From: a virus
Taxonomy: Duplodnaviria > Caudoviricetes
IMG/VR virus record: IMGVR_UViG_2744054526_000001
Location: 16,391 to 80,390 of that record
Strand: one strand, 5' to 3'
Length of the DNA: 64,000 bases
The notes under the pieces are model-generated. The model was not told the DNA's origin. It did not search any database and was given only the letters and a program-made list of their open reading frames with translations. The position numbers and the translations under genes are program-made. This document shows positions 37,452 through 61,837 of this stretch, piece by piece; positions within the stretch are counted from its first letter, which is position 1; every line of letters starts with the position of its first letter.

Positions 37452-37452
37452 A

Positions 37453-41033: not shown

Positions 41034-41121
41034 CCTAACAGCGCTGGGCCAGGTGATAAAGCAGGGCTGTTAGGATCTCAACCTGAGAAAACTCGAGGGC
41101 TGTTCATTTTAGGAGGAAAGG

Positions 41122-42054: not shown

Positions 42055-42158
42055 TTGAGTTGCAATTTTTAACAAGTTGATAACCGAGGCGACATCTTTA
42101 ATAAACCTTGCCCTGGGATTTGAATCTTCCATCAGCCAAGAGAAAAAAGGATAAATAG

Positions 42159-43943: not shown

Positions 43944-44695
43944 TGGGAACTTCACAATCAAGTATAGGCCCGGGTGGTGGTTCTCCACTGGTTCCACCAT
44001 GGGCTGATGATCAGCCACAGCAACCCTTAACCCCGCCACAAGAACGAAGGTTTGCGCCTTTTAGGGAGTCTTTGGGAAATGCAGTTTCAAACGGCAATAG
44101 AGCAGACTTTAGAAAAGCAATAGGGCATTACGCGCGAAAAGCGTCTGGAGGGAGCAGTAGTGCAGCTCGACGACTAGGGAGTGTCACACAGGCTGGGGGC
44201 GGATTGTTTGGGGCTCTGGCGGGAGTGCAAGCGGCTCCAGGAGAACCAAGCATTGATTTGGGAAGCTTGGCTGGCCTTCCATGTGAAATAGCAATATCGG
44301 CTATTGCTCAAGCTTTAACATCACAGGATGGTGATTCAGAAAAGATTTGTGCTGCCATGAATCATGCCTTAGTGGAAGCTCTCGATGGTGTGGCAATTTT
44401 CGATCCTCAAAAAATAACTGATAGTGTGATCGTTGACACAATGATTTGTTATTTAGCTGAAAGCATTTTTCTGCAAATGGTCATGGATTCTAACAAGGCA
44501 TGGAATAAAGCGGACACTCCTTCAAAGGCCATTCATGCAGAAATTGAACTTCGAGAATTGATCAAAGTTGTTGTTGATAAGCATATGGCTCCAAAACTTG
44601 TCGGTAACATTAGGACTTTTACGAAAAACCAAATGGTTAAAATCGAGCGTCAGGTAATTACTGAGGCTTGGCAAGAATGGGAGGCCTATCAATGA
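43943..44695 (+). CDS. qatB: QatB
   Basis: MGTSQSS.GPGG..PLVPPWAD N-terminus; position between qatA and qatC. Confidence 0.88.
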   Translation: MGTSQSSIGPGGGSPLVPPWADDQPQQPLTPPQERRFAPFRESLGNAVSNGNRADFRKAIGHYARKASGGSSSAARRLGSVTQAGGGLFGALAGVQAAPGEPSIDLGSLAGLPCEIAISAIAQALTSQDGDSEKICAAMNHALVEALDGVAIFDPQKITDSVIVDTMICYLAESIFLQMVMDSNKAWNKADTPSKAIHAEIELRELIKVVVDKHMAPKLVGNIRTFTKNQMVKIERQVITEAWQEWEAYQ

Positions 44696-45996: not shown

Positions 45997-46718
45997 GTAT
46001 CGACATGCACTGTCATCTTGACTTATATCCTCAGCCAGAACAAGTGGCTGAGGAGTGCAGACGTCGAGGGACTTATATACTGTCGGTTACAACGACACCG
46101 AGAGCATGGCATGGGACTTCTTTACTGGCTAAAGGAAGCCAACGAATCCGAACTGCTCTTGGGCTTCATCCCCAAATTGCGCATCAAAGATCTCATGAGT
46201 TAGAGCTGTTTGATTCGTTACTTTCGGAGACCAGGTATGTTGGCGAAATAGGGCTTGATGGAGGTAAGGGGTTTAAAGAACATTGGGACGTCCAGCTGAA
46301 GGTATTTCGACACATACTTAATAGTGTGCATCGTGCCGGAGGTAAGATTATGACTATTCACAGTCGGGGATGTGCATCAGATACTATTGATGAGATTGAA
46401 AATATTGATGGTATAGCGATATTACATTGGTTTACTGGGACTCCAAAGCAGCTAGAAAGAGCAATTGATTTAGGGTGTTGGTTCTCCGTAGGACCCGCTA
46501 TGCTCGAAACAATTAAGGGGAAAGCGTTAGTTTTGAAAATTCCTAAATCACGCATTCTTACAGAAACCGATGGGCCATTTGGTAAGTTTCATAATGTTCC
46601 ACTAATGCCATGGGATAGTGAGATAGCCGAGACTCAGTTAGCCGCATTATGGGGGGTGAGCCTGAAGGATGTTAAAGCTCAGCTTGCTGATAATTTAAGA
46701 AGACTGTGTAGTTATTAA
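45993..46718 (+). CDS. qatD: QatD TatD-family nuclease
   Basis: DMHCHLD, LGLHP, GEIGLD, IHSR, LHW, ETDGP. Confidence 0.92.
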   Translation: MSIDMHCHLDLYPQPEQVAEECRRRGTYILSVTTTPRAWHGTSLLAKGSQRIRTALGLHPQIAHQRSHELELFDSLLSETRYVGEIGLDGGKGFKEHWDVQLKVFRHILNSVHRAGGKIMTIHSRGCASDTIDEIENIDGIAILHWFTGTPKQLERAIDLGCWFSVGPAMLETIKGKALVLKIPKSRILTETDGPFGKFHNVPLMPWDSEIAETQLAALWGVSLKDVKAQLADNLRRLCSY

Positions 46719-47152: not shown

Positions 47153-47851
47153 TCAACTGGCTAATCCGCTTAACCGCGGACATTGGCTTGTACCAAAGTT
47201 GCGGTAACCGCAGTGGACATCCTTAGTTCTGGTTTTGGCCAAGTACGCCAGTCGAATCAGGAAATCCCAGTAGACTGAGTTACGATCCAAAGCATCGAAT
47301 CTGCTAAACCTGTAAACAGCATTAGGTGGGAATTCAGCTAATGTCGCGTACTCTTCGTGAGCAAGCCCTATAGCACTGCACCAAGCTTTCTGTATTCGGG
47401 TTGCCATATTTTTAGCATTGAGTTCTTGGTAATTGCCCAAGTATCCATACACATCCGCATTAAATAACAGCATCAGGTGGTAATGGGGATGCTCACTTGT
47501 GTCACGTTCTCTACACCACCCATAAGATGGAAATGTCGGGTCACCCGGTCTCTTGGACCGGTTATGATCTACCCGTAGCTGACTTTTCAGTGACTCGAAG
47601 AAGCGAGTGATTGCCTGCGTATCATCGCGCTGGAAGCAGAGGGGTAGATCAGGCTCTCCCAGTACATGGGACTGGGCAAATCTCAGATCAGAACGAATAC
47701 CTAGTATTCGGTTATTCTGCACTAGTGCGCCGTAGACCATGTTAAGTAGTGGGATGAGAATATCGCGGTCGATAGGTGATCTATACTTTTTGGAGGCTAT
47801 TTCTACCAAGTCATCAATTTCTTCGTTGGTAAGTGTATATTGTGATTCCAT
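47153..47851 (-). CDS. YagK/YfjJ-like (inovirus Gp2 family) HUH endonuclease-like protein
   Basis: R.DLRF, Y.W.RE, HPHYH, RLAYLAK..TK, RNFG.SQ. Confidence 0.85.
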   Translation of the reverse strand: MESQYTLTNEEIDDLVEIASKKYRSPIDRDILIPLLNMVYGALVQNNRILGIRSDLRFAQSHVLGEPDLPLCFQRDDTQAITRFFESLKSQLRVDHNRSKRPGDPTFPSYGWCRERDTSEHPHYHLMLLFNADVYGYLGNYQELNAKNMATRIQKAWCSAIGLAHEEYATLAEFPPNAVYRFSRFDALDRNSVYWDFLIRLAYLAKTRTKDVHCGYRNFGTSQCPRLSGLAS

Positions 47852-48114
47852 AATAATCCTTAAGTATGTAAATAATAATCTTTGGCTAATGGGTAGCCCT
47901 CACGCTACCCATGTGATGTTGGATATAACTCCTGTAGGGGAGTTATTATTACTATTGATAAGTACTGATTAGGTATAGAACCTTAATTAAGGTATATTAC
48001 ATATACCACCTTAAAATCATGAGTTGCCCTCCCTAGTCATTTAAGTTGAGGCCGCAGGATTATTGAGCTTTAGAACAAAAAAATATTATCCAGAAAAACT
48101 TAGCTACTCTGAAG

Positions 48115-49629
48115 TTATTCGTTCTTTGGTAGTTTATTAAAAGCAACAGATCCAGATGAAATTAAAGGTATGTTTGATGCTTTAGCCATATCAAAAGGAT
48201 GCACGTCTGAACCAATATATTTTACATAGTCAACGCCGTCCATTTTAAATAACTGCACTATGCCATCTTTCTCAAGTTCCTTTAAAACGGGTATCAGACG
48301 CTCTATGTTTCTAAGAGAGTATGGACCATCTCTACGAATAGTGTGCCTCCTAAAATCGTAAGATTTATTACTGATAACATGTTCCTCAAGCCAAAATAGC
48401 AACTTTTCTTTCTCGCTAGGTTTTCTGGTAGAATCTACTTTTAAAATTAAGTGGGTAATACACCATTCACTTATTTTAGCTGCTGACAGAAAAGTATCCC
48501 TAGTAATTATTGGTGAGTCGGGTGTAATAAACATTTGCATTACTGCTGCGATTCGCGTAGCTTGTTCCATTATTCTGGAACCAAAATCATCATAGTGATG
48601 CAACTCACCTCCTGATTGCATAAGTTCCCTGATTCGCTTATTTTGTGTTTCCCATAATGCTTTCGCCTCTTCAGATAAAGTAATACAGATACGTTCTTCA
48701 TTGTTTTCTCTACGCTGTATGCCGTCTTGCAAGTGCTTAACAAGAATAGAGAAAAAACCATCAAGCCCTGGTTCATCAGACCATGAACATACATCAGGGA
48801 TATCGCATGGTTCAGGTACTTGCTCCAGATCAATTAATAATAAACGGGCTAAGAACCCTGAGTTTCTTAATTTTTTTCCTTGCTTGCTTAGGAAATCGTT
48901 AAATATTGCAGGTTGCAGTAACAGCAATATGGTCAGCCGGACATCATCAACATCGTAGCTGTCACGAGATGCTCTGCTGTCTGAAATTCTCCCTTCTCCC
49001 CAAAGAGAGTTGAGAACTGATATATCGCGAAAAAGGCTACTGTCAAACACCCCTCCGGCTTCATCAGAACCGAGCATCAAGGACGGAGATCCCAGAGCTA
49101 ATGTCTTTTTAAGTCCCTCGCTTGTTGAATCATTTTTAGTAAGATACTTTCTAACCGGTGCTACCGGTCCACTTTTCTGACATTCCTCCAGTGCTTCGCG
49201 TGTTTCAGCTACATCAACCTTCTGGCGAACAGCTTTGCTAAATTGCTTTTTAAGTTCTTTTAATTCCGTATCCCAAGATACTTTTTTCAGTTCATAAATT
49301 TTTTCCTTTTCCAGAAAGATATTCTTCATTCCCTTTTCCATTTGATGGATTGTTTCCATCAGTGCTTTGAATACCGTTGACTTCCTGCTACCTGACCGTG
49401 CTAATAAAAGGAGATAAAGTGATGTAAATGTTCTCCCATTTTTAAGCTGAACATCAAATTTATCCTGACAGGAAAATGCCATTACCCCAAGTAATACTAT
49501 TAAAATAAGCTCAATGGGAGCTCCTGTTTTGTAATGTATGTAACTTATCAATCGCTGTGCAAAAGTGGGCAGCGTATGAAACTCCAGACAAAGTTCTTTA
49601 TTTTGCTTAGATTTTTTTTCCTTAGACAT
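48115..49629 (-). CDS. YfjI/DUF3987-like P-loop protein
   Basis: ARSGSRKST, SDEAG, SGFLAR motifs; C-terminal wHTH-like region. Confidence 0.85.
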   Translation of the reverse strand: MSKEKKSKQNKELCLEFHTLPTFAQRLISYIHYKTGAPIELILIVLLGVMAFSCQDKFDVQLKNGRTFTSLYLLLLARSGSRKSTVFKALMETIHQMEKGMKNIFLEKEKIYELKKVSWDTELKELKKQFSKAVRQKVDVAETREALEECQKSGPVAPVRKYLTKNDSTSEGLKKTLALGSPSLMLGSDEAGGVFDSSLFRDISVLNSLWGEGRISDSRASRDSYDVDDVRLTILLLLQPAIFNDFLSKQGKKLRNSGFLARLLLIDLEQVPEPCDIPDVCSWSDEPGLDGFFSILVKHLQDGIQRRENNEERICITLSEEAKALWETQNKRIRELMQSGGELHHYDDFGSRIMEQATRIAAVMQMFITPDSPIITRDTFLSAAKISEWCITHLILKVDSTRKPSEKEKLLFWLEEHVISNKSYDFRRHTIRRDGPYSLRNIERLIPVLKELEKDGIVQLFKMDGVDYVKYIGSDVHPFDMAKASNIPLISSGSVAFNKLPKNE

Positions 49630-49780
49630 GCATTGTATAGCTCCTCTTTTTTAGAAAAATTATACTGTTTTTGAAGCAGTCCACTTATCTATAGAAGTGG
49701 ACCGCCATCCTACCAATGAAAAGCCAAGTTGATGGACTAAGAAATATTTCCAGAATCATTTTTAATGATGAATAAATATC

Positions 49781-50020
49781 TCACAAACATTTAACGTTGG
49801 CTGTTTTTAACGTTTTTAGATAATTTTTAACATCATCTTCAAACCAATAATTTCTATTGTTAATTTTGATTGGTCTGACTAGACCGAAGGGAAGGCGATC
49901 TTCATGCAACCACATTCTTATCGTTTGAGGTTTGCGCTTTAGAAAATCAGCTAACTCAGTAGTAGATACCAAGGAAATATTATCTAGATCTAATGAGTGT
50001 AACATTTTAGATTGATTCAT
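49781..50020 (-). CDS. Small HTH protein (excisionase/AlpA-like)
   Basis: STTELADFL..KPQTIR.W...P.KI...YW...DV. Confidence 0.75.
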   Translation of the reverse strand: MNQSKMLHSLDLDNISLVSTTELADFLKRKPQTIRMWLHEDRLPFGLVRPIKINNRNYWFEDDVKNYLKTLKTANVKCL

Positions 50021-50463
50021 GCTGCCACCTCTGTAAAAGAGTTGTTGGCAAATGAATTAAAGAGGAAATTTATATGACAAAAACAAGAAGGGAATATGGA
50101 ACCAAAAGCCTCAGCAGGTTCGGGATCACTTCCATCGCTAGAACTAGAAGACAAAGAATTTTTAACTGATTTGGTGGTGCTGCGACGTGACCTTGCAGCC
50201 GAGCCTGTATGAGGCACACTCCGAAAAATTACATTCTGAAATGCAATGCTAAGTGACTTAATTCTTACGTGTTTCCGTTTCATAGCAAGGTTCATTGCAT
50301 GAAGAGCAACTTTCTTGTAATGATTTTTAAACCATTGAGCGAGTGGTCCTGCATCTGCTGATGGGGCATGGTAATAGATTTCAAAAGCCGCATTATTTAA
50401 TCCCAGCATGTTCGCCAGAATCTCTTGGTCATTGTCTAAAGCGCTGGTCTTTGAATCAAACAT
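50017..50463 (-). CDS. Hypothetical protein (yagN position)
   Basis: 148 aa with SSSSSDGSDPEP low-complexity tail, GGAG RBS. Confidence 0.6.
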   Translation of the reverse strand: MFDSKTSALDNDQEILANMLGLNNAAFEIYYHAPSADAGPLAQWFKNHYKKVALHAMNLAMKRKHVRIKSLSIAFQNVIFRSVPHTGSAARSRRSTTKSVKNSLSSSSSDGSDPEPAEAFGSIFPSCFCHINFLFNSFANNSFTEVAA

Positions 50464-50570
50464 TCTGATACATCTCCTTTATGGTTGAGGTTTATGAGTC
50501 GATTTTCATCTAAGTTTGTATTCCTGTCAATATATCCACACTCCGTTTAACTTATTGATAATATTGAATA

Positions 50571-51896
50571 TCAACGCAACTCAACATTCTTTTTTTTACT
50601 GGTTTTGGTTTGTTCTAAGATCCAAGTCTCAATTTTTTCATGCCATTTGCGCAACAGATCTAAGGGACGACGGCGGTAGTGTTTTTCCGCCAGTGCACTT
50701 GGTTTGTGTCCCATAATTTGAGCAACAATACCTGTTGGCACTTCAACCCATTCTGCCAGGGTTCCAAAACTACGGCGTAAGCCGTGAAGGCTGATATGTG
50801 GCAACTCAGCTCGAGCTAACGCTCTGTTGTGTGCTGAACGCGGTTCAATAATTTTGCCACTTTTGCTGTTACTTCTGAAAACCCAACACTCCTTATTTAC
50901 GTCAGAATTTGGGAATTGCACTAGTGCACTTAACAGCTCAGAAACATAAGGAGTGAGAGGGATGATACGTTCGCCTTCGATCTTGTCTTTAATCCTCATG
51001 CTTGACCATTTGAAATCTACGTCAGACCACCGAAGTGACGCAATTTCTTCACGCCGTGCACCGGTGAGCAAAAGTACCTGGAGATAGGCCGATGCAATGG
51101 GATTATTGAGGCTACGTACGGCACTGAACCAGCTTTTTAACTGTTCTTTTTGTAAGCAATCTCCCGCTTTACTCGCTGATACTGGAACCATTTTTCTCAC
51201 GTTATGATCTTGTGCAAGATCGCCATGGATTATTCCCTGATATTTTTTCTGGTAATTAGCCCATTTGATAAATGCACGCAACAGACGGTAGGCATGAGCA
51301 GTGACGGTAGGCCGATTTTGTCTCTCTGTACTTAGCCATACGGCAATGTTCTCTGGTGTTAGTTCCGATAACGGTAGGTCGAGTAAGCTAGCCAATGGTC
51401 CAGACGAGGTTGGGCCCCGGCCTCTTTTTTTACTTTCGCCTCCACGGCTGGACAAGTTCACGTGATCGGCAATATAACGTGCAGAGTAAGGACGTTTAGT
51501 TTTTGCGCTGATTCCGGTTCTCAATTCTTGAAGATAATCTTCCCAAGCGCTTGAGAAGGTTACCTTCGTTTTACGAGATTCAGCCTGCTGTGATTCCGCT
51601 TCAGCAATTTTTTCTGCTTTAGCTATACGCGGATCTATCCCAGTATCGATTAATGTTTGCAGCCGCCTGGCTTCGGCCCTGGCATCATCAATCCTCCAAT
51701 CGTTAATGTTGCCAATGGTCATGCGAAGGGTTTTTCCCGCATATACGCTTTGGAACACAAAAGCTTTTGTTCCGCGAGTTGCCCGGCATGCCAGAGTTGG
51801 TACATCCGCATCCCAAAGAAATGCTTGGTTTTTACCTTCAGTTAAAGCAAATTTTCGAATGCGCTCGAAGGTGAGTTTTTGTCTCGGAAGTGCCAT
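50571..51896 (-). CDS. Tyrosine integrase (IntF-like)
   Basis: Arm-binding N-terminal domain, TGARREE, HGLRRSF, MGH, HY; ATG 51896. Confidence 0.93.
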   Translation of the reverse strand: MALPRQKLTFERIRKFALTEGKNQAFLWDADVPTLACRATRGTKAFVFQSVYAGKTLRMTIGNINDWRIDDARAEARRLQTLIDTGIDPRIAKAEKIAEAESQQAESRKTKVTFSSAWEDYLQELRTGISAKTKRPYSARYIADHVNLSSRGGESKKRGRGPTSSGPLASLLDLPLSELTPENIAVWLSTERQNRPTVTAHAYRLLRAFIKWANYQKKYQGIIHGDLAQDHNVRKMVPVSASKAGDCLQKEQLKSWFSAVRSLNNPIASAYLQVLLLTGARREEIASLRWSDVDFKWSSMRIKDKIEGERIIPLTPYVSELLSALVQFPNSDVNKECWVFRSNSKSGKIIEPRSAHNRALARAELPHISLHGLRRSFGTLAEWVEVPTGIVAQIMGHKPSALAEKHYRRRPLDLLRKWHEKIETWILEQTKTSKKKNVELR

Positions 51897-51933
51897 TTTT
51901 GGTCTCCAGATGAGAAAGGTTACATCACCATAA

Positions 51934-51976
51934 TGTAACGGCTGGTGTAAGTAAATTGGGGAAATACACATCAACA
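51934..51976 (+). repeat. Integrase arm-type site, right copy
   Basis: TGTAAC-N5-GTGTAAGT-N15-ACATCAACA matching 26010-26052. Confidence 0.7.
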
Positions 51977-52078
51977 CCTGTCAATTTTTATCAACAGGTG
52001 TTTTTTATAAGTTAATGTTTTATAATGAAATAATTGTTTTAAGAGTAGGTTTTTAAAGGGGTAAAAGTATAATAACTT

Positions 52079-52127
52079 CGCATTCGTAATGCGAAGGTCG
52101 TAGGTTCGACTCCTATTATCGGCACCA
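52079..52127 (+). repeat. att core: 3' 49 bp of tRNA-Thr(CGT)
   Basis: CGCATTCGTAATGCGAAGG...ATCGGCACCA; direct repeat of 25907-25952. Confidence 0.95.
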
Positions 52128-52262: not shown

Positions 52263-52292
52263 GTGCTGTTAGGTCTTGTGGAGATACCCCCA

Positions 52293-53507
52293 ATGAAGCT
52301 CAACGCCCGCCAGGTTGATACCGCTAAACCAAAAGATAAACCCTATAAACTTGCTGATGGTGGTGGGCTTTATCTTCTGGTTAACCCAAATGGTGCACGA
52401 TACTGGCGGCTTAAGTATCGTGTAGCAGGCAAAGAAAAGCTGCTGGCTCTGGGGGTATATCCAGACGTTACCCTCGCAGATGCGCGGGCTAAACGTGATG
52501 AGGCAAAAAGGGGGATCGCCGGGGGCATCGACCCTAGCGAAGCAAAGCGGGAAGAAAAGATATCCCGAGAGTTAAATGTCAGGAATACATTTCAGGAAAT
52601 AGCCTGCGAATGGCATTCCAGCAAGCTCTATAAATGGTCTGAGGGGTACGCCTCGGACATTATGGAAGCATTCAATAAGGATGTTTTTCCGTACATTGGT
52701 AAAAAACCGATCTCGGAAATCAAACCGCTAGAATTGCTTAATGTGCTTCGCCGAATGGAGGGGAGAGGGGCAACGGAGAAGGCTAAGAAGGTTAGGCAGC
52801 GCTGCGGTGAAGTTTTTCGCTATGCCATTGTTACTGGCCGGGCTGAATACAATCCAGCGCCAGATCTCACCAGCGCTATGCAGGGGCATGAATCCAGCCA
52901 CTATCCTTTCCTGAATGCGCCTGAGCTTCCCGCATTTTTTGAGGCGCTATCACGTTACTCAGGTAGTGAGCTGGTGGTATTGGCCGCGCGTTTGCTGATC
53001 ATCACTGGTTTAAGAACAGGTGAACTCCGAGGAGCTACATGGCAGGAAATCGACGTTGATGCTGCTGTTTGGGAGATTCCGGCGGAACGAATGAAGATGC
53101 GCCGCCCACACATAGTGCCATTGTCATTACAGGCGCAAGCCATAATCATGCGTATCCGGGAAATGACAGGCCGCTATCCCTATATATTCCCTGGGCGTAA
53201 TGATCCGCGTAAAACCATGAGTGAAGCCAGCATTAACCAGGTTTTTAAACGCATCGGGTATGCCGGGAGAGTAACAGGCCACGGTTTCCGCCACACCATG
53301 AGTACCATTCTCCACGAACAGGGCTATAACACCGCATGGATTGAAACGCAGCTCGCCCACGTCGATAAAAACTCTATTCGAGGCACATACAACCACGCTC
53401 AATATCTCGATGGCCGCCGGGAAATGCTTCAATGGTATGCCGACTATATGGATGCGCTGGAACACCATGAAAACGTGGTTCATGGGCGTTTTGGTAAATC
53501 CTCATGA
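52293..53507 (+). CDS. P4-like tyrosine integrase
   Basis: KLADGGGLYLLV, TGLRTGELR, HGFRH, QLAH, YNHA.YL..R. Confidence 0.95.
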   Translation: MKLNARQVDTAKPKDKPYKLADGGGLYLLVNPNGARYWRLKYRVAGKEKLLALGVYPDVTLADARAKRDEAKRGIAGGIDPSEAKREEKISRELNVRNTFQEIACEWHSSKLYKWSEGYASDIMEAFNKDVFPYIGKKPISEIKPLELLNVLRRMEGRGATEKAKKVRQRCGEVFRYAIVTGRAEYNPAPDLTSAMQGHESSHYPFLNAPELPAFFEALSRYSGSELVVLAARLLIITGLRTGELRGATWQEIDVDAAVWEIPAERMKMRRPHIVPLSLQAQAIIMRIREMTGRYPYIFPGRNDPRKTMSEASINQVFKRIGYAGRVTGHGFRHTMSTILHEQGYNTAWIETQLAHVDKNSIRGTYNHAQYLDGRREMLQWYADYMDALEHHENVVHGRFGKSS

Positions 53508-53566
53508 CTGGATGAATAGACAGTGATAGCTGATGCGGGTAGACTTCAGTAGACGAACAAAGAATA

Positions 53567-53622
53567 GGCTATGTCTAGGCTGATCCCCGAAAACCCGTAC
53601 ACCTCTGCGGGCTGACATAGCC
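53567..53622 (+). ncRNA. Candidate structured RNA between int and the next gene (int-alpA-like motif)
   Basis: GGCTATGTC/GACATAGCC outer stem, inner CCCGTA/TGCGGG hairpin, GCTGATCCCCGAAAA internal loop. Confidence 0.45.
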
Positions 53623-53651
53623 CCCAAAATCAGAGGGCGCGAGGTGGCGTT

Positions 53652-53972
53652 ATGTTAGATATCGCTGAAGTGCTCAAAGCACGAGAAAATGAGTTTATCA
53701 GTTTAAGAGAATTGATTACTCGTATCAGACTACAGCAACCACATGTCAGTGAATCCGATATCGCAAGTTTTCTTTACATTGAAAATAGTGATAGAGCGCT
53801 CCCTGAGTGGGTGAAGCAAGGTATTGCAAGCACGATTGAAGGAACCGATGGTGGATACCAGGATTCAGAATTGGTAACTCTCCTGAAAGTTATTCATGAG
53901 GAAGGGCATATGCCTGAGGTGACTCCGCCATCTGAGCCTCCTATGGACTTCGATGATGATATTCCATTCTAG
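53652..53972 (+). CDS. Hypothetical protein with SSB-like C-terminal tail
   Basis: 106 aa, GAGG RBS, ends SEPPMDFDDDIPF. Confidence 0.8.
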   Translation: MLDIAEVLKARENEFISLRELITRIRLQQPHVSESDIASFLYIENSDRALPEWVKQGIASTIEGTDGGYQDSELVTLLKVIHEEGHMPEVTPPSEPPMDFDDDIPF

Positions 53973-53989: not shown

Positions 53990-54448
53990 ATGGCGGGATG
54001 GGGACAGCCGGTGAAAGACCATTGGTCAGCACCAGCATTTGATACTTATGGCTTTAGGCGCTCCGAGTTGAAGCAGTTAGCGGATAAGCTTGGAATTGAC
54101 CTTTCAACTCCTCTTGAGGAGGTTAAGCCCACACCACTGAATGGTGTTGAGCAAAAACCACTTAGTGAAGCTGATGTTGAGATCCTGAAAATGGAAATTG
54201 ACACACTTAAAAAGCAGGTTAGAAAGCTCGAAAATGAACGCCCTATTTTAATTAACAGGTATCGGGAAGATGACCCTCTATACCTTGCGATTAAAATTCG
54301 GAACCAAGAATGGGCAAAGTACGATCCTGAGAATGATAGGCAAACAAGAGGCAACCAAACAGCGATTGTGAAAGACCTGGAGGATAAGGGTTTTTCGAAT
54401 GTCCAGGCCAAAGCAATCGAAATGGTCGCCTGCCCAATTAAACGTTAA
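53990..54448 (+). CDS. Hypothetical protein, possible repressor
   Basis: 152 aa, GGAGG RBS, central coiled coil, C-terminal HTH-like helices; directly upstream of the operator array. Confidence 0.7.
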   Translation: MAGWGQPVKDHWSAPAFDTYGFRRSELKQLADKLGIDLSTPLEEVKPTPLNGVEQKPLSEADVEILKMEIDTLKKQVRKLENERPILINRYREDDPLYLAIKIRNQEWAKYDPENDRQTRGNQTAIVKDLEDKGFSNVQAKAIEMVACPIKR

Positions 54449-54457
54449 GCAATTAAC

Positions 54458-54629
54458 ACCCTCAGGGATTATGCTGCATGATGCTTACCCTCAGGGTGAA
54501 AATGAAATTTTATCCGTACCCTCATGGCAGCACCTGGCTTACCCTGAGGGTACGATTACAAATAGATTCGCCGATTACCCTTAGCCCTTAGGGTTTATAA
54601 CTAAGAAAAATCCCTCATGCCTGAGGGTA
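54458..54629. promoter_or_regulatory. Array of CCCTNAGGG-type palindromic operators upstream of alpA
   Basis: Copies at 54458, 54487, 54518 (degenerate), 54541, 54577-54594 and 54612-54627. Confidence 0.75.
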
Positions 54630-54696
54630 TGATTTTTTTAGCTTTTTTCATGCCATCATTAATCTCGTAAACCGCAATGGACGTTACGAGGTAAAT

Positions 54697-54894
54697 ATGT
54701 CTCAGTCATTAATTAGATTTGCCGAGGTACAAAAGCGTACTGGCTATAGTAAGGCGTGGTTATACCGTCTTATGAGCGAGAAACGCTTTCCCGCAGCAAT
54801 TAAAATTGGTTCCCGCTCTATCGCTTTTATTGAAAGTGAAATTGACGAGTGGATTAATCAGCGCATCGCTGAGTCGCGTGGCGAGGTGGCGTAA
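54697..54894 (+). CDS. alpA: AlpA-family regulator
   Basis: LIRF.EV..RTG.S..WLY......FP..IKIG.RS..F.ESEI.EWI. Confidence 0.93.
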   Translation: MSQSLIRFAEVQKRTGYSKAWLYRLMSEKRFPAAIKIGSRSIAFIESEIDEWINQRIAESRGEVA

Positions 54895-55328
54895 TGGAAA
54901 AGAAAAACCGCCCCGTACAGCAGGCGGCTAACTCAGATATTCGCACGTCTGATATTACGCCGACCACCAGCCCGGTACAAGTACCTAAGCGTACCCCAAA
55001 GAAACACCGCGCCCGCGTCTATATGCTGCGCACTGGCGTAGAGGGATGGACAGAAAATGATATTCTGCGCTACTGCCGTCTTTCATCCGGGCGTAATTAT
55101 GCGTCTGAACTGGAGCGCCAGCTTGATATTCAACTAGAGCGTATCGACGAGAAAAACCCGGATGGTATCGGCGCACACCTGCGCTACCGCTTTTCCTGCC
55201 GTGGCGACGTTCTCAAGGTGATCCAACTTGTGAACCATAACGCCACCATTAATGAACATCACGGGTTATCTCAGCAGGATATTGCCGACATTCTGAACCT
55301 CTACCCGGACGCATTTAACGCCGCATAA
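54894..55328 (+). CDS. Hypothetical winged-helix-like protein
   Basis: 144 aa coupled to alpA; SSGRNYASELER. Confidence 0.7.
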   Translation: MEKKNRPVQQAANSDIRTSDITPTTSPVQVPKRTPKKHRARVYMLRTGVEGWTENDILRYCRLSSGRNYASELERQLDIQLERIDEKNPDGIGAHLRYRFSCRGDVLKVIQLVNHNATINEHHGLSQQDIADILNLYPDAFNAA

Positions 55329-55341
55329 CGGAGCCGAAAAC

Positions 55342-56184
55342 ATGACTATCGAAAAAAGCCGATTCAATTCGGAGGCCGCCCCACAATCCAATGCTTGCCA
55401 GGGCGAACATAGCAATAATGACTTTGCCGCGATTGTTCCCGTTATTTCCGGTCAAATTGGCGGGCGTGAGGCCAGTATTGTTAGCGCTAAGGCACTGCAT
55501 AAAGCGCTCGGAGTAGGTAACGACTTTTCAACCTGGATCAAACTACGCATTGATGAATATGGCTTTAGCCTGAGTGCTGATTACGTAGTTTTTGATTCCT
55601 CAGATTTCAGGAATCAAAGTTCAAATTTTGAACAGGGTAGCCCCGGATGGGTGACAAAGCGTGGCGGCGACCGTCGCAGTAAAGATTATGGCCTTTCTCT
55701 GGGAATGGCTAAAGAACTGGCAATGGTTGAGCGAAACGAACAAGGTCGCGCCGTTCGCCGTTACTTTATTCAGTGTGAAGAAGCCCTACAGCGCAGCGTG
55801 CCAGAGATTGCCGCTCAGTATCGCCGCCAGCTCAAAGCCCGTATCGGTGCCGCCAGCCTGTTTAAACCGATGTGCGTAGCACTGGAAAGCGCCCGCGCAG
55901 AACAGGGTAAACAGACGCAGGCTCGCCACTACAGCAACGAGAGTAATATGATCGCCCGCATTGTTTTGGGTGGCATGACGGCGAAGCAGTGGGCGCAGGC
56001 GAATAGCATTACTGGCGAACCACGCGACAGCATGAACGCCGGGCAACTGGAACACCTCACCTACCTGGAGAGTACCAACATTACGCTGATTGATATGGGT
56101 ATGGGATATGACCAGCGTAAAGCCGAGCTAATCCGCCTTTCTCAGCGCTGGTTAGCTAAACATCTGGGGGCTAATCATGCTTAA
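55342..56184 (+). CDS. AntA/AntB-family antirepressor
   Basis: VSA..LH..L....DFSTWIK.RI..YGF, MAKELAMVER...GR..RRYFI.CE. Confidence 0.9.
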   Translation: MTIEKSRFNSEAAPQSNACQGEHSNNDFAAIVPVISGQIGGREASIVSAKALHKALGVGNDFSTWIKLRIDEYGFSLSADYVVFDSSDFRNQSSNFEQGSPGWVTKRGGDRRSKDYGLSLGMAKELAMVERNEQGRAVRRYFIQCEEALQRSVPEIAAQYRRQLKARIGAASLFKPMCVALESARAEQGKQTQARHYSNESNMIARIVLGGMTAKQWAQANSITGEPRDSMNAGQLEHLTYLESTNITLIDMGMGYDQRKAELIRLSQRWLAKHLGANHA

Positions 56185-57001
56185 TGCCGCCGTCCAGAAT
56201 AAAGTCTTTCCCCTGGCTGGCCTGATGTGTACCTTGCGCGGGATCGCGCACACGCACGAGGGTAAAGCTGGCATAACAGTGCCAGCTAATGCCAGCTCCT
56301 CATTTTCTCGTCGTGGTGACGAGGAGAGTTTCGAGACCAGTACGCGCACGGGACTTTTTGCACCAGTACGCGCACGCGAGGAAGGTTTTTCTGACATCAC
56401 TACGCCAGGGGGAAATCATTCTACTGGCGTGAGTTTTCGGAGAAGTACGCGCGTGCGCGAAGGTGAGTTTCTGGAGTCCATAAAAAAGGGCTTGCCGACT
56501 ATCGCCAACCCGGTTTATGGTTATAGCGCACCAGCAGAATCTGGTGCCGGGATTGGTCTCCCGGTAAATCGAATGGCGACACACGACGCGCCTAGCGTCT
56601 TTTTTTGTGCCGTTAGCTCAGTACACCTCTTTTTCAGCGGTACGGGTATTATCCGTGTCGCTCGCAAAATTATGGTGGGCTGCGTGGGGGCTTCTTCGGA
56701 AGCGCCGGTGACCATTCGAGCCGGTAAGACCAACTCTGCGCAGTCCACCACCAGCAAGATTGGTCTCTTCGGTGGTGGGTTAATCCCAAATCGAATGGAG
56801 GCTGCCGCTATGCTGGCTACTACCCCTACCCAAAATCCGCAATTCATCTGGTTAATCGCAGCCGTTCGCCGCGACATGCCGACAATTACCGCCAAAATCC
56901 ATCATATCGCTGCTGAATCTGAGCGCGAAGCCCGCCGCACGCTGTCGCGGGATCACGTCTGTTTCTTTGCAGGCCGTATCCGTCAGGAGGTGGCAGCATG
57001 A
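56177..57001 (+). CDS. Ash-family ORF with C-terminal Icd-like host division inhibitor (internal ATG 56810)
   Basis: MLATTPTQNP...AESEREARR.L......FAGRI; spans the C4-like RNA. Confidence 0.8.
   Translation: MLNAAVQNKVFPLAGLMCTLRGIAHTHEGKAGITVPANASSSFSRRGDEESFETSTRTGLFAPVRAREEGFSDITTPGGNHSTGVSFRRSTRVREGEFLESIKKGLPTIANPVYGYSAPAESGAGIGLPVNRMATHDAPSVFFCAVSSVHLFFSGTGIIRVARKIMVGCVGASSEAPVTIRAGKTNSAQSTTSKIGLFGGGLIPNRMEAAAMLATTPTQNPQFIWLIAAVRRDMPTITAKIHHIAAESEREARRTLSRDHVCFFAGRIRQEVAA
56673..56750 (+). ncRNA. C4/CI-like antisense immunity RNA
   Basis: TGGTGGGCTGCG/CGCAGTCCACCA closing stem, CTTCGG hairpin, CCGG hairpin, AGACCAA bulge complementary to TTGGTCT upstream (56553) and downstream (56760). 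Confidence 0.8.
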
Positions 57002-57261
57002 ACATTAACGCCTTATACCGCCATCCGTCCGAGCTTGAAGCCGAAGCGATGTTATCCCGCGAGCAGGCTTACCCGGATGATTTTACGCTGGCAGACCGAA
57101 CAGCAGAACGTATGACCCGCGCCCGTAATGGGCTGGCTCACGTTATGACCGATTTAGCCACTCAACTAAACGATGAACAGGCCGCTATCGTGTATTGCTG
57201 GTTGAGTAAAGTCCTGACGATTGTCGATATAGCCAGAATTGATGCGGAGGGCAGCGCATGA
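56998..57261 (+). CDS. Hypothetical satellite protein
   Basis: 87 aa, ATGA overlap with the ash/icd ORF. Confidence 0.7.
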   Translation: MNINALYRHPSELEAEAMLSREQAYPDDFTLADRTAERMTRARNGLAHVMTDLATQLNDEQAAIVYCWLSKVLTIVDIARIDAEGSA

Positions 57262-57884
57262 GCAACGCACCGACCATTAAATCGGGAAATGCCGACTTAT
57301 TACACGCCGAAGCCACACCGCACGGCGTCAATATCATGACCCGCAATGATGCCGGGGGATATGAGCAGGTTGCTCTTATCAGCTACGAGAGCGCCGTGAA
57401 CGGCCTTGACGCCGGAGAGTACGACGACAAGCCAGATATCGGATACGCCATTCATTTTGCCGTTGCTGATGGCGGGGCGCGTGGCTGGTTCGACTTCACC
57501 GCGCAGCATAACGTCACCATGTGGCGATGGCTGGTTGCTGCGACGTTCATTTCTGAGATGAAGCGCGAAAACGGCACAACAACCATCACGGAGGATGACG
57601 GCAAATCGTCGCTGGTGACGTTTTATTCAAATGGCACGGAGGGGATTGTGGTTTACCCGTTCGCGGAACGTCTGGCGATGGCTAACAATATGGAGGGCGC
57701 AATGATTGAGCGCTACGGCATTGAGCAGGGAACAGCGAACGCCATTGTTTTTTATCAGGCCATGATCGACACGGAGCGCGGCGAGTTGACCCCGTTCGGG
57801 CGTCAGACGCTGGCAGAGCTACACGATGGATTCATTGCCGATCTGAATGAAAACGGCTTGCCTGAAATGCCAGCGGCGCACTGA
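57258..57884 (+). CDS. Hypothetical satellite protein
   Basis: 208 aa, ATGA overlap, precedes the primase. Confidence 0.7.
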   Translation: MSNAPTIKSGNADLLHAEATPHGVNIMTRNDAGGYEQVALISYESAVNGLDAGEYDDKPDIGYAIHFAVADGGARGWFDFTAQHNVTMWRWLVAATFISEMKRENGTTTITEDDGKSSLVTFYSNGTEGIVVYPFAERLAMANNMEGAMIERYGIEQGTANAIVFYQAMIDTERGELTPFGRQTLAELHDGFIADLNENGLPEMPAAH

Positions 57885-57898
57885 GGGAGGTAACACGA

Positions 57899-60664
57899 AT
57901 GCGTAATATCGACCTTATCCGCGAAGTGACCAGCGCCGCAGCAGGGCGCTGGCCTTATGTACTGGCTGGCCTGTCTATCGACGTGCCTGATTCATCGCGC
58001 CGCCATTCCCCATGCCCTGCATGTGGTGGAAAAGACCGTTTCAGATTCGACGACAACGGGCGCGGTAGCTTTATCTGCAACCAATGCGGCGCTGGCGACG
58101 GGCTGGACTTAATCAAACGGGTGAACAACTGCGACACCACAGAGGCGGCGCACCTTGCCGCCGATGTGCTGGGTATTGATTACCGGGCCGCAGAATCAGC
58201 ACCAGACGCTGCCAGCCAGAGACAGACGCAGTTAGCCGCAGACCGCCAGCAGCGTGAGCAGGAGCGCCAGAAACAGGCAGCAGAGGACGCAGAGCAGCGA
58301 AGGGCTACGTTTGCCCGTCTGTATACCGGAATGCGCCTGAGATCCATACAGGGAGAATCTGAGTACCTGCAATCAAAAGGGCTGACCGGGTTTAAATACC
58401 CGCTTATGCCCGATGGTTCGTTATTGCTGGAGCTGGTGGACGAGTCCGGCGCAGTGGCAGCAGCGCAGACCATTACACCGCATGGAGAAAAGCGACTCCT
58501 GACAGGTTCAGCAAAGCGCGGGGCATATCACGCCGTAAACGCGCCAGAATCGCCGCAGAGCGTTTTAATTGCCGAAGGGCTGGCGACGGCCCTTTCAGTT
58601 CACCTGATGCGCCCGGACGCGCTGGCAGTGGCAGCAATTGACGCGGGCAACCTGCTACCCGTTGCCGAAGTGATGCGCCGTAAACACCCGAAGGCGCAAA
58701 TTATTATCGCCGCAGACAACGACCACCACCAAAACGGAGAAGCCAATACAGGCAGGGAGGCCGCAGAGAAAGCCGCCTTATCCGTGGCTGGCTGGGTATC
58801 AATGCCACCGACAGACTACAAAGCCGACTGGAACGACCACCACCAGAAAAACGGGCTGGAAGTCGCTACGGCTGCGTTTAACGATTCGATGTACCAGATT
58901 CAAGGGGAAGCCGTGAAACCACGATTGCAGGCCATTGAGGGCGGTAAAACTGACCATCCAGAGAAAGACCCACTAAAACCCCACATTGAGAGCCGCAAAG
59001 ATGGCGTTTTCTGGGTAACGCCGAAGGTGGACAAGGAAAGCGGGGAGATCATCAACGCTGAAAGCTGGTTATGTTCACCGTTGGAGGTTATCGGCACGGG
59101 ACGCGACGACAAAGATCAGTATCTTATTATCTCATGGCTGGCATTCGGTGCAGGCATACCGACAACAGCGGCTATCCCGCTGGCTGATATTGGCGAGCGT
59201 GAAGGCTGGCGCACCCTGAAAGCTGGTGGCGTCAACGTCACAACGAAAAACAGCTTACGGGCGATTCTTGCCGACTGGTTACAGCGAAGCGGCTCGCGTG
59301 AATTGTGGCGCGTTGCTCATGCTACAGGCTGGCAGTGCGGGGCATACATCATGCCGGACGGGGAAATTATCGGCACACCTGGGCGCCCTGTTTTGTTCAG
59401 CGGGCGCAGTTCAGCCGCTGCCGGGTATACCGTAGCAGGAACGCCGGAAAGCTGGCGTAACAGTGTTGCGCGGCTGGCATACGGTAATTACGCGATGATG
59501 ACAGGCATCGCCGCAGCACTGGCAGCGCCATTAATCGGGGTGGCAGATCGTGACGGATTCGGGATTCATTTTTATGAGCAATCGAGCGCCGGGAAAACAA
59601 CCACGCAGAACGTGGCGAGCAGTCTTTACGGCAACCCTGATGCCTTGCGCCTGACGTGGTACGGGACGGCGCTGGGGCTGATAAACGAGGCCGCCGCCCA
59701 CAATGACGGGCTGATGCCACTGGATGAAGTCGGACAGGGCGCAGACCCGATAAGCGTTTCACAGTCTGCCTATGCTCTTTTTAACGGCGTGGGGAAATTG
59801 CAGGGAGCAAAGGAAGGCGGCAACCGGGATCTAAAGCGCTGGCGTACCGTGGCAATCAGTACCGGGGAAATGGATTTAGAAACGTTTATCGCCACCGCAG
59901 GACGCAAGACAAAAGCGGGGCAACTGGTGCGCTTGCTGAATATCCCGTTAAGTAAGGCGGTGCGCTTTCATGAACACCAGACAGGGAAAGAACACGCCGA
60001 CGCGCTGAAAGATGCTTATCAGCACCATCATGGCGCTGCCGGGAGGGAGTGGATCAGATGGCTTTCAGACCACCAGCAACAGGCGATTGATGCCGTTCGT
60101 GAGTGTGAGGCCCGCTGGCGCAGTCTAATCCCTGCCGACTATGGGGAACAGGTTCACCGTGTAGGGGCAAGATTTGCCATTCTGGAGGCCGCTTTACTGA
60201 TGGGTGGCGTGGTTACTGGCTGGGATGCTCAAACGTGTCGGGATGCGATACAGCAAAGCTACAACGCATGGCTGAAAGAGTTCGGCACGGGGAACAAAGA
60301 GCACCAGCAGATCATCGAGCAGACGGAGGCGTTTTTAAATGCCTATGGGCTGAGTCGATTCGCGCCGCTGCCTTACGACCCCGCCAGCCTGCCGATTCAT
60401 AATCTGGCTGGATACAGGCAGCGCGGAAATCATGACGATTCACCGATAACGTTTTACACGTTCCCCGACACTTTCGATAAGGATATTGCTAAGGGGTTTA
60501 ACAGGCAGCAGGTGGCCCGCGTCCTGAAAGAATCGGGGATGCTTACCCCTTCGGCAGACGGAAAAAAATTTCAGAGGAAAAGCCCGCGCATTCAGGGGAG
60601 GCAGATTAACGTTTACGTTTTGCAATTCCTGCCGGATGGGGAGGAAAGCCAGCCAGAGCAATAA
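57899..60664 (+). CDS. Primase-helicase (Zn ribbon, TOPRIM, DUF927-like helicase)
   Basis: CPACGGKDRF...CNQCGAGDG, AEGLATA, AADND, DWND, SSAGKTT, LDEVGQ. Confidence 0.92.
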   Translation: MRNIDLIREVTSAAAGRWPYVLAGLSIDVPDSSRRHSPCPACGGKDRFRFDDNGRGSFICNQCGAGDGLDLIKRVNNCDTTEAAHLAADVLGIDYRAAESAPDAASQRQTQLAADRQQREQERQKQAAEDAEQRRATFARLYTGMRLRSIQGESEYLQSKGLTGFKYPLMPDGSLLLELVDESGAVAAAQTITPHGEKRLLTGSAKRGAYHAVNAPESPQSVLIAEGLATALSVHLMRPDALAVAAIDAGNLLPVAEVMRRKHPKAQIIIAADNDHHQNGEANTGREAAEKAALSVAGWVSMPPTDYKADWNDHHQKNGLEVATAAFNDSMYQIQGEAVKPRLQAIEGGKTDHPEKDPLKPHIESRKDGVFWVTPKVDKESGEIINAESWLCSPLEVIGTGRDDKDQYLIISWLAFGAGIPTTAAIPLADIGEREGWRTLKAGGVNVTTKNSLRAILADWLQRSGSRELWRVAHATGWQCGAYIMPDGEIIGTPGRPVLFSGRSSAAAGYTVAGTPESWRNSVARLAYGNYAMMTGIAAALAAPLIGVADRDGFGIHFYEQSSAGKTTTQNVASSLYGNPDALRLTWYGTALGLINEAAAHNDGLMPLDEVGQGADPISVSQSAYALFNGVGKLQGAKEGGNRDLKRWRTVAISTGEMDLETFIATAGRKTKAGQLVRLLNIPLSKAVRFHEHQTGKEHADALKDAYQHHHGAAGREWIRWLSDHQQQAIDAVRECEARWRSLIPADYGEQVHRVGARFAILEAALLMGGVVTGWDAQTCRDAIQQSYNAWLKEFGTGNKEHQQIIEQTEAFLNAYGLSRFAPLPYDPASLPIHNLAGYRQRGNHDDSPITFYTFPDTFDKDIAKGFNRQQVARVLKESGMLTPSADGKKFQRKSPRIQGRQINVYVLQFLPDGEESQPEQ

Positions 60665-61052: not shown

Positions 61053-61514
61053 ATGACAGCACAGATATCAGCCTACGGGCGTTTAGTCGCAGACCCGCAG
61101 ACCCGCACCACAGCAAACGGTACAAGCATGGCGATGGGACGGTTGGCGGTGGCACTGCCCTGCCATGCAGCAGAGGGCGGAGAGGTTACTTTCTGGCTGG
61201 GCGTGGTGGCATTCGGCAAACAGGCCGACGCACTGGCAGGACACGTTAAAGGCGATTTAGTCAGTGTTGCCGGAGCGATGCAGGTCAATCAGTGGGCGGG
61301 CAAGGATGGCGGTACACAGCAAGGCTATCAGGTAGTAGCCGACAGCGTGATCAGCGCCAGAACGGTACGCCCCGGCGGGAAGCGGGCCGAATCAGTCAAA
61401 GCAAGCGGAGCCAGCAGAGGCCACGCAACACAATCCGCGCCGGGATGGGAGTTATATAACACCCCTGATGATTTTGACCAGCGCCCGCCGTTTGATGATG
61501 AAGATCCATTCTGA
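61053..61514 (+). CDS. ssb: Single-stranded DNA-binding protein
   Basis: GRLVADP, VVAFG..A, KGD.V.V.G OB fold; acidic FDDEDPF tail. Confidence 0.9.
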   Translation: MTAQISAYGRLVADPQTRTTANGTSMAMGRLAVALPCHAAEGGEVTFWLGVVAFGKQADALAGHVKGDLVSVAGAMQVNQWAGKDGGTQQGYQVVADSVISARTVRPGGKRAESVKASGASRGHATQSAPGWELYNTPDDFDQRPPFDDEDPF

Positions 61515-61525
61515 GGGATATAAGC

Positions 61526-61837
61526 ATGGTAAACGACAGCAAAGCCGGGGCTTTGGAGGCAAAGGGGCTGTATCGCAGGGCAGCTACACGCTGGCAGGAA
61601 GTCATGATGCTTTGTGCTAAGGACGATGATCGGGAATGGGTAAAGCAGCGCCGTGATATGTGTCTGACGAACGTGAAGCGCCCGCCAGTGAAAACCGATG
61701 ATTACGGCGATCTGCATAAAGCAGTCACTGAGACACAACACCGCATGGGGATAGCGCAACCGAACGGTAACGCCTTCCGGTTAAATGGCGGTAAGAAGCA
61801 ACGACAGACCACCAGCGGGAGCGACAGTTCGCAGTAA
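61526..61837 (+). CDS. PerC-family transcriptional activator
   Basis: A..LE.KGLYRRAA.RW.EV. Confidence 0.88.
   Translation: MVNDSKAGALEAKGLYRRAATRWQEVMMLCAKDDDREWVKQRRDMCLTNVKRPPVKTDDYGDLHKAVTETQHRMGIAQPNGNAFRLNGGKKQRQTTSGSDSSQ

Follow-up and report, generated by a model that had tools for sequence, protein, structure and literature searches.

Organization of the int–alpA region

The DNA analysed here, referred to as the window, is a stretch of 64,000 nucleotides (nt) that corresponds to positions 16,391 to 80,390 of the viral record IMGVR_UViG_2744054526_000001, an 80-kb source record that is classed as a provirus. The window contains a phage satellite in which two small open reading frames, ORF106 and ORF152, lie between the gene for the integrase (int) and alpA. 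The ORF106 protein consists of 106 amino acids (aa) and, on its predicted fold, is not an SSB (single-stranded DNA-binding protein); it ends in the C-terminal peptide of the host SSB. The features of this region are as follows.

52263..53507, plus strand: tyrosine integrase (Pfam Arm-DNA-bind_3, Phage_int_M and Phage_integrase)
53508..53523, plus strand: LexA-like box CTGGATGAATAGACAG, overlapping the -35 element of a promoter-like site at 53517-53545
53568..53636, plus strand: int-alpA RNA motif (RF02996) in the 5' leader of the operon, 45.8 bits against a gathering score of 35.8
53652..53972, plus strand: ORF106, 106 aa, with a helical N-terminal domain (approximately residues 1-88), a short Pro-rich linker and an SSB-type tail
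53934..53969, plus strand: codons for EPPMDFDDDIPF, the mimic of the SSB C-terminal peptide in ORF106
53990..54448, plus strand: ORF152, with a GFRR motif region, a leucine-zipper-like coiled coil (approximately residues 55-90) and a conserved C-terminal domain with VACPIKR at its end
54459..54627: array of CCCTNAGGG palindromes in the gap between ORF152 and alpA, with exact copies at 54459, 54488, 54542 and 54585 and near copies at 54519 and 54612-54627
54697..54894, plus strand: alpA (Phage_AlpA / HTH_17, Pfam 3.8e-18)

The ORF106 gene starts with an ATG that has a GAGG 5 nt upstream, and its product ends ...MPEVTPPSEPPMDFDDDIPF, the codon for the terminal Phe being followed directly by a TAG stop. 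The gap between ORF106 and ORF152 is 17-30 nt long and contains the ribosome-binding site for ORF152. Of the 16 distinct loci in which ORF106 is a gene of its own, 15 have the order int-ORF106-ORF152-alpA and one, the degraded locus L005, does not. The integrase is kept upstream of the ORF106 gene in related loci.

The SSB-type tail of ORF106

In bacterial DNA metabolism no protein-docking peptide is better characterised than the tip of SSB. The last 12 residues of ORF106, EPPMDFDDDIPF, are the C-terminal end of enterobacterial SSB as present in the solved chains 7f2n and 1eqq. Similarly, the chromosomal SSBs of the genomes that carry relatives of the element (4/4) end ...NEPPMDFDDDIPF and have the same last 12 residues as ORF106. 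A six-frame scan of the window finds only two acidic ...PF-stop ends, that of ORF106 and that of ORF 61053..61514, the satellite's own SSB. As an earlier note on this DNA, made from the sequence alone, had pointed out, this genuine SSB ends differently. Satellite SSBs end either PPFDDEDPF (window and Kluyvera) or PPFDDDF (Pantoea, L014) and, unlike ORF106, lack the Ile-Pro of the host tip.

A word-indexed search returned 52 homologues of ORF106, which range from 58 to 186 aa, and a 53-row alignment was made. The named hosts of the homologues are Salmonella, Klebsiella, Yersinia, Providencia, Kosakonia, Pluralibacter, Enterobacter, Citrobacter, Pectobacterium, Dickeya and Cronobacter. An exhaustive HMMER search of 1.84 billion representatives gave 15 matches at E<=1e-3 and added more distant members. 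Among these matches P0047, P0053, P0054, P0055, P0056 and P0059 are members of the family and P0064 and P0065 are short fragments resembling family members, while the long matches in multiple stretches (P0057, P0058, P0060-P0063 and P0066) are probably compositional.

IPF forms the end of 49 of the 53 alignment rows, and the exact end DFDDDIPF is present in 31 of the 53. The four rows without IPF are one partial record, two short truncated forms and one frame-shifted contig; every row that is neither truncated nor frame-shifted keeps it (49/49). The check proposed in the earlier note, whether homologues keep the tail or swap it, thereby comes out in favour of its being kept. Variation within the tail is confined to the acidic run (for example DFDDIPF, DFDADIPF and DFDDLIPF), the terminal IPF being the strictest part, and across the family 7-23 residues separate the last helix from the final eight residues.

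The tail is kept even where the remainder of the protein has changed considerably. In a Cedecea homologue (P0145) the N-terminal domain is 39% identical to that of the window and the tail is retained at 12/12 residues; the equivalent values for Pantoea agglomerans (P0138) are 41% and 11/12. Across four loci the last eight tail codons show synonymous differences only. When the last 12 codons of ORF106 are compared with those of the chromosomal ssb gene in the Kluyvera genome with an identical ORF106, 7 synonymous differences and no amino-acid differences are found, which argues for selection on the peptide and against a recent copy of the host gene. Judged from these codons, the tail peptide is under strong purifying selection, and its 12/12 identity across deep divergence speaks for true mimicry. 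The conservation and the exclusively synonymous codon changes agree with the description, in the earlier note, of a genuine mimic of the host SSB C-terminal peptide on a satellite protein, and they indicate that the mimic is selected.

The same data bear on whether the tail is simply a functionless leftover of an old recombination with an ssb gene. Mobile elements of this family carry ssb genes, so a donor sequence would have been at hand. Such a relic is nevertheless extremely improbable, as the tail codons have changed only synonymously while the protein diverged to 39% identity, and the terminal IPF is found in 49/49 intact aligned rows.

As a control of specificity, a degenerate DNA pattern for DFDDDIPF-stop was sought in 61 genomes of the same bacterial family. 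The pattern occurs at 45 places in 43 genomes, of which 31 places were inspected and 14 were not. Thirty of the inspected places are SSB genes (two with assembly frameshifts), and the remaining one is the identical Kluyvera copy of ORF106. A family profile (A1) has matches in 2 of 401 Enterobacterales species genomes, one of which is the carrier itself, and a pattern scan of species genomes gives 4 loci; the family is therefore sporadic among the genomes searched. Searches of complete E. coli genomes with megablast and blastn found no ORF106 or ORF152 DNA, but only the flanking integrase end, the leader and alpA.

Absence of an SSB fold in ORF106

No family is assigned to ORF106 by Pfam, PADLOC or NCBIfam, and only weak matches to the end residues of SSB models are seen. 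The oligonucleotide/oligosaccharide-binding (OB) fold family PF00436 does not match ORF106 even at E up to 5, and the NCBIfam and PHROG matches are restricted to tail residues. When the family profile is compared with all PDB sequences only the last 12-20 positions align, to SSB chains, and EPPMDFDDDIPF is identical there. The AlphaFold2 model of ORF106, calculated with the 53-row family alignment, contains five helices within residues 4-84 and a disordered tail, with a mean predicted local distance difference test (pLDDT) score of 65.7. On this model ORF106 has an all-helical body without an OB fold and is not an SSB. The pairing of a non-SSB protein with a host SSB tail, as put forward in the earlier note, thus stands: the last 12 residues match exactly and neither Pfam nor AlphaFold2 gives an OB fold.

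A Foldseek search against the PDB at E<=0.001 returned nothing for the models of ORF106 or ORF152, and a structure search of the ESM Atlas gave unnamed clusters only. The neighbours of ORF106 residues 1-63 in a wide VIA-align search are almost all winged-helix, with Z values of 4.2-5.4 that are below the level which the tool considers meaningful.

ORF152 and the natural fusions

ORF152 has no family in Pfam, PADLOC, PHROGs or NCBIfam. Its own family is marked by an invariant G-F-x-R motif near the N-terminus. At the start of ORF152 (53990-54010) the residues MAGWGQP share a five-residue match with GGWGQPQQPQ of the host SSB linker, which may be due to chance.

The two proteins are found joined in a 248-aa E. 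coli protein, P0053. Residues 1-93 of this protein match ORF106 residues 1-88 with 61% identity (BLASTP), and residues 107-248 are 60% identical to ORF152 residues 12-152 (E 1e-62). P0108 is a second fused cluster of this type. Five more fused clusters of 243-257 aa (P0128-P0133) have an ORF152 part that is nearly letter for letter the same, together with N-terminal domains that are much more divergent. In a third class, of approximately 262 aa (L056-L061), the similarity is limited to the coiled coil and the C-terminal domain (46% over 105 aa, E 3e-23) and the front is unrelated. A resemblance of the N-terminus of the 262-aa class to ORF106, noticed by eye, was dropped after BLASTP gave no similarity. 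These 262-aa regulators (for example L059 2966-3754) contain an internal H(L/M)(D/E)(D/G)IP(F/W) near residue 50, which is similar to the SSB tip and is not C-terminal. The SSB tail is found in none of the seven fused clusters (0/7), and all fused forms end VACPIKR.

From these alignments the genes in the slot between int and alpA form a modular family, with a constant back (the leucine-zipper-like coiled coil and a domain of approximately 60 aa) and a variable front. ORF106 is, on the same comparison, one such front part turned into a separate polypeptide with an SSB tip at its new C-terminus. P0056 adjoins a 144-aa ORF152 homologue, P0121, as judged from consecutive NCBI locus tags. A DNA alignment of the split and fused junctions did not reveal the ancestral form; a joint alignment of the fused, ORF106 and ORF152 families was misaligned and was discarded. 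The model of a natural fusion has a confident coiled coil and a four-helix C-terminal domain (block pLDDT 69-88). In a wide VIA-align search the neighbours of this four-helix domain are almost all winged-helix with Z values of 4-6, which according to the tool possibly reflects just a common arrangement.

The winged-helix-type neighbours of the ORF106 N-terminal domain would suit an adaptor. In such a role the domain would sit on DNA or on DNA-bound ORF152 and the tail would recruit a host SSB partner (e.g. PriA, primase or DNA polymerase III's chi subunit), thereby aiding satellite replication or remodelling the alpA region. SSB tails act as handles for recruitment, for which primase and chi compete (PMC3632105), and the element encodes its own primase-helicase and SSB. 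We consider the adaptor quite unlikely. The gene lies in a regulatory slot beside alpA, with the gene for the primase approximately 4 kb away, the fold is matched only weakly and the fused forms are without the tail; iteron-like repeats, besides the alpA-proximal palindromes, were neither sought nor seen.

Palindromes in front of alpA

The 64-kb window contains four exact copies of CCCTNAGGG, all at 54459-54593, where 0.71 would be expected by chance. The distribution of the palindrome was surveyed in 41 related loci, among them two pairs that share a contig and overlap. In 40 of the 41 loci, be the slot gene split or fused, the interval from the end of the ORF152-type gene to the alpA start contains 1-5 exact palindromes. 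The remaining locus, L005, lacks both ORF152 and alpA, and only one stray copy was observed outside this interval. In the 262-aa class the palindromes are directly 3' of the gene in 5 of 6 loci. The E. coli element L006, which has a different slot protein of 239 aa, has no CCCTNAGGG palindrome and contains other repeats instead. As far as this distribution shows, the ORF152-type C-terminal module travels with the palindrome array.

The last palindrome abuts a conserved TATGA(T/A), which could be the -10 element of alpA. ORF152 is predicted to be a dimeric DNA-binding regulator of alpA, and this prediction is well supported by the anatomy of the locus. The earlier note had linked ORF106 to the switch of the satellite. 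That link is strengthened by the same anatomy, in that ORF106 corresponds to the N-terminal module of a regulator family whose C-terminal module co-occurs with palindromes before alpA.

An inverted repeat, ATTAATCTCGTAA / TTACGAGGTAAAT, at 54658-54696 covers the GAGG just before the alpA start and may provide translational control of alpA. Conservation of the last 45 or so nt upstream of alpA extends even to the E. coli element that has another gene in the slot.

Signals upstream of the operon

A site of the form CTG[TG]N8ACAG is found 126-157 nt before the slot-gene start codon in 22 of 24 loci. The arms of this LexA-like box are kept, the inner 8 nt vary by lineage, and some lineages have a textbook-looking box. 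The copy in the window has one mismatch to the LexA core motif, and single LexA-like sites of the quality of this copy are not rarer than chance in the window. The putative box suggests that the ORF106-ORF152 operon is under SOS (LexA) control, which adds an input that was absent from the earlier note. If the box is real the operon would be SOS-inducible, and this would fit the moment at which a resident helper prophage is induced.

The int-alpA RNA motif follows the box. The distance from its end to the slot-gene start is 15-17 nt in all four genome loci examined, in 9 of the 11 split viral loci and in 7 of 11 further loci. Its spacing is the same whatever the slot gene (split, fused or of the 262-aa class; L002-L005 and L019-L061). 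From this constant position the motif appears to be a 5' leader that acts in cis, and not a small RNA in its own right.

The timed expression that the LexA-like box suggests would also suit a decoy. ORF106, perhaps SOS-induced, would then compete with SSB for its partner proteins. In doing so it would dampen host exonucleases, helicases or restart proteins to protect the excised satellite, or it would starve the SSB-dependent recombination and replication of the helper phage as a form of interference or immunity. A competitor would need just such an exact 12-residue host tail carried by a flexible linker, and the satellite's own SSB might be spared through its different tail, FDDEDPF. There is also a precedent in Stl2 of SaPI2, a satellite protein that both senses and inhibits phage recombinases (PMC11846896). 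For a simple decoy, however, there would be no need of homology to a regulator's N-terminal module or of constant pairing with one, and a monomeric decoy would have to prevail over thousands of tetrameric SSB tails. The tail is also wholly absent from the fused relatives and no PADLOC model is matched, and on balance we regard a decoy as unlikely.

A possible role for the tail

The reading that we favour, tentatively and with a confidence that falls somewhat short of even, is that an alpA regulator has been split, with ORF106 as its free N-terminal module, and that the ORF106 tail docks on SSB-binding proteins, most likely as an input from the helper phage, coupling them to ORF152 at alpA. The tail has the sequence features of a docking peptide: a terminal Phe with a free carboxylate, Ile-Pro before it, an acidic run, and the selection described above. 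An ORF152 dimer would bind the palindromes and set the level of alpA transcription, ORF106 would associate with ORF152 as an input module, and the ORF106 tail would plug into the SSB-tail pocket of another protein. Splitting the regulator would give the N-terminal module the free C-terminal Phe that such a peptide needs.

A more specific proposal is that the tail serves to bait those proteins of the helper phage for which docking on host SSB is indispensable. We favour this use of the tail, at a confidence below that in the reading as a whole and well short of even. The bait would be directed at single-strand annealing recombinases of the helper phage (Red-beta/RecT/Erf-type) and at replication proteins. 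The function of RecT-type recombinases depends on their recognition of the seven C-terminal residues of host SSB (bioRxiv 10.1101/2020.04.14.041095). Capture of a phage protein would change the activity of ORF152 at the CCCTNAGGG operators, with the result that alpA fires. A phage could hardly escape such a bait because it cannot give up SSB binding. The bait and the SOS box together would form an AND gate that responds to DNA damage plus the presence of a phage.

Several observations weigh against the coupling of SSB-binding proteins to a split regulator, and some of them against the bait in particular. The fused forms are without any tail and work without it, which means that the tail is not essential to the regulator as such. 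The likeness of the P0128-P0133 N-terminal domains to ORF106 extends over the first 25 residues only, at an hhalign probability of 65%. No helix–turn–helix family is detected in ORF106 or ORF152 by Pfam, and the fold matches fall below the meaningful level of the tool. A 128-aa relative of the ORF106 N-terminal domain, at 2531-2917 (minus strand) of the rearranged locus L093, has no tail. Many SSB-tail binders are always present in host cells, so a bait would be partly occupied without a phage. The LexA-like box, in turn, would make this a DNA-damage-induced operon, which fits an SOS-induced activator or antirepressor better than a standing repressor; with such a box the ORF106-ORF152 pair need not be a standing repressor. 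Finally, the tip itself varies in some branches with no change in the host SSB. The E. coli cluster P0054 ends DDSDDIPY, and the Salmonella proteins P0056, P0140 and P0142 end DFEDDIQF beside DFEDDIPF in P0141 and P0143. These IPY and IQF branches fit a private partner better than strict SSB mimicry.

Together with the tail-free fused forms, the IQF and IPY variants speak somewhat for a tether, in which the tail holds ORF106 on ORF152 non-covalently, in place of the peptide bond that joins them in the fused forms. The tails of host SSB, exposed where it coats single-stranded DNA, would compete for the same site and release ORF106, making the pair a sensor of single-stranded DNA load. The tail is present on every intact stand-alone N-terminal half in the int-ORF152-alpA loci seen and on no fused form. 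The variants occur in branches with divergent ORF152 partners, with the host SSB unchanged, and the G-F-x-R motif near the ORF152 N-terminus is invariant. A private link would be expected to drift, yet 12/12 residues equal those of host SSB at 39% identity of the N-terminal domain. In addition, no SSB-tail pocket is recognisable in ORF152, and the need for a free C-terminus also explains why the tail is confined to split forms. The tether is placed no higher than the adaptor, as an improbable explanation.

If the tail is such a bait for helper-phage proteins, it would give Gram-negative phage-inducible chromosomal islands (PICIs) their first known mechanism of inducer sensing, and SSB-tail mimicry would for the first time be seen to serve as a sensor from which a phage cannot escape by mutation. 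A bait would represent a new way for a phage parasite to read an unchangeable phage function. A decoy would be a naturally occurring protein that inhibits the SSB interactome, a target of antibacterial development (PMC5872125). Either way, the locus shows that selection can keep the SSB tip on an unrelated scaffold to which it has been moved. The locus is a testable candidate for helper sensing, as it offers a two-gene module, visible candidate operators, an SOS-type box and an SSB docking peptide on one subunit.

Comparison with known systems

The ORF106 tail resembles the SSB C-terminal peptide (...DFDDDIPF) in its last 12 residues, in its location at the extreme C-terminus and in the flexible Pro-rich linker that precedes it. 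The pattern of conservation is also the same, with IPF strictest and the acidic run looser. The proteins differ in their bodies, that of ORF106 being a helical domain of approximately 88 aa with no sign of single-stranded DNA binding or of a four-tailed tetramer. Acidic tails that end in Phe are present in gp2.5 and gp4 of phage T7, and gp4, the helicase-primase, is a non-SSB protein whose SSB-like tail competes for the same pocket. In T7 it is the polymerase of the phage itself that these tails serve; they do not reproduce the tip of host SSB, and regulators are not known to carry them.

A small operon with an SOS box beside a genetic switch is also known from the LexA-controlled antirepressors of temperate phages (186 Tum and those of the Gifsy phages). 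Unlike these, the ORF106-ORF152 operon includes a probable DNA-binding module with its own candidate operators.

The SaPI2 repressor Stl2 is de-repressed by unrelated phage recombinases and also inhibits them (PMC11846896; PMC5779228). Like the proposed ORF106-ORF152 regulator it is encoded by a satellite beside the switch, and in both cases the helper is proposed to be read through conserved phage proteins of DNA metabolism (PMC5779228; PMC11846896). Induction and possibly interference are combined in one protein in Stl2, as is proposed here for ORF106. There is no relation in sequence or fold between the two systems; in the text available, Stl2 is described as binding recombinases through mimicry of the ring or filament architecture that these form, and not by way of an SSB peptide (PMC11846896). 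DNA binding and de-repression are experimental for Stl2 and are inferred for ORF106/ORF152, which differ further in their Gram-negative host, in having alpA as the predicted target gene and in being a putative regulator split in two.

A known element of the same type is EcCIMP1, a PICI that has been placed experimentally at tRNA-Thr with the core TCCTATTATC (PMC11773190). It has in common with the element described here the tRNA-Thr core, int, a slot gene, alpA, an antirepressor, a primase and an ANR/PerC-like gene. Its slot gene, EcCIMP1_002, differs in encoding a very small protein mis-annotated as UvrB-like, and the available text gives no ORF106/ORF152 pair (PMC11773190). AlpA is the helper-induced master activator of this type of PICI, and the same text identifies no sensor, repressor or regulator of alpA (PMC11773190).

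In the full-text literature searched, subscription journals excluded, no satellite or phage regulator that is not an SSB and carries an SSB tail is described. The mimicry of the SSB tail that this literature does contain is limited to SSB-like prophage DUF669 proteins with a DDDIPF end, which are said, in the passages available, to copy the SSB C-terminal motif, perhaps to reach host partners (PMC13687109). The DUF669 proteins are treated there as SSB-like and replication-associated, whereas ORF106 is not SSB-like and lies in a regulatory operon. ORF106/ORF152 would fall within known kinds, namely the regulators of satellite switches and the mimicry of a host hub peptide.

The satellite and its surroundings

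By its predicted gene content the element is an EcCIMP1-like Gram-negative PICI at tRNA-Thr. It has an integrase at a tRNA site, alpA just downstream and a primase/replication gene, and in the part seen there are no capsid or lysis genes, the right end lying beyond the window. The further features of the satellite are listed below.

52079..52127, plus strand: last 49 nt (3') of tRNA-Thr, a copy of the attachment site (att) with core TCCTATTATC at 52111-52120, before the satellite integrase
54894-55328: 144-aa ORF
55342-56184: AntA-type gene
56528-56755: isrK and C4 RNAs (68 and 73 bits)
56998-57261 and 57258-57884: two small ORFs
57899..60664, plus strand: primase-helicase (Zn ribbon, Toprim and DUF927)
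61053..61514, plus strand: the satellite's own SSB, 153 aa, ending PPFDDEDPF (PF00436, 55.6 bits; TIGR00621; phrog_44)
61526-61837: ANR-like gene

The isrK and C4 antisense motifs fall inside an ORF of 274 aa (56177-57001), and the same pair of motifs is present in related loci. The 274-aa ORF is for this reason probably not a gene, and the stretch 56528-56755 is predicted to be the P1/P4-type RNA immunity region of the satellite. Contigs of the metatranscriptome X5 are at least 99% identical to the window over 53755-53939, 54037-54390 and 55095-55303, which are parts of ORF106, ORF152 and the 144-aa ORF; strand, ends and level are not readable from these contigs, carry-over of DNA is possible, and the gap in X5 over int and alpA does not mean silence. 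The remaining runs are probably DNA.

The 128-aa relative of the ORF106 N-terminal domain in L093 adjoins a HigB/HigA-like pair, with no ORF152 or alpA beside it.

At the left end of the satellite, 52079-52127 matches exactly the 3' part of the tRNA-Thr annotated in L006 and of the tRNA in L002, and no whole tRNA was found in the window. A second island is located to the left of the satellite at 47153-51977, containing a minus-strand integrase (50571-51977), a helix–turn–helix gene, a DUF3987 protein and a YagK/YfjJ gene. The presence of only the 3' 49 nt of tRNA-Thr, together with this second island, points to two elements in tandem at one tRNA site. Further to the left, 35544-46718 is occupied by a defence-like cluster that includes an ABC-3C CTD2 protein, a 994-aa SMC-like AAA_23 protein, a KAP-family NTPase and a QueC-like protein followed by a TatD-type DNase. 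Finally, phage late genes are found at 2667-23662 (portal PF06381, DUF2213, a tape-measure-like protein with an SLT domain and a tail-fibre C-terminal domain), which places a prophage approximately 30 kb from the satellite.

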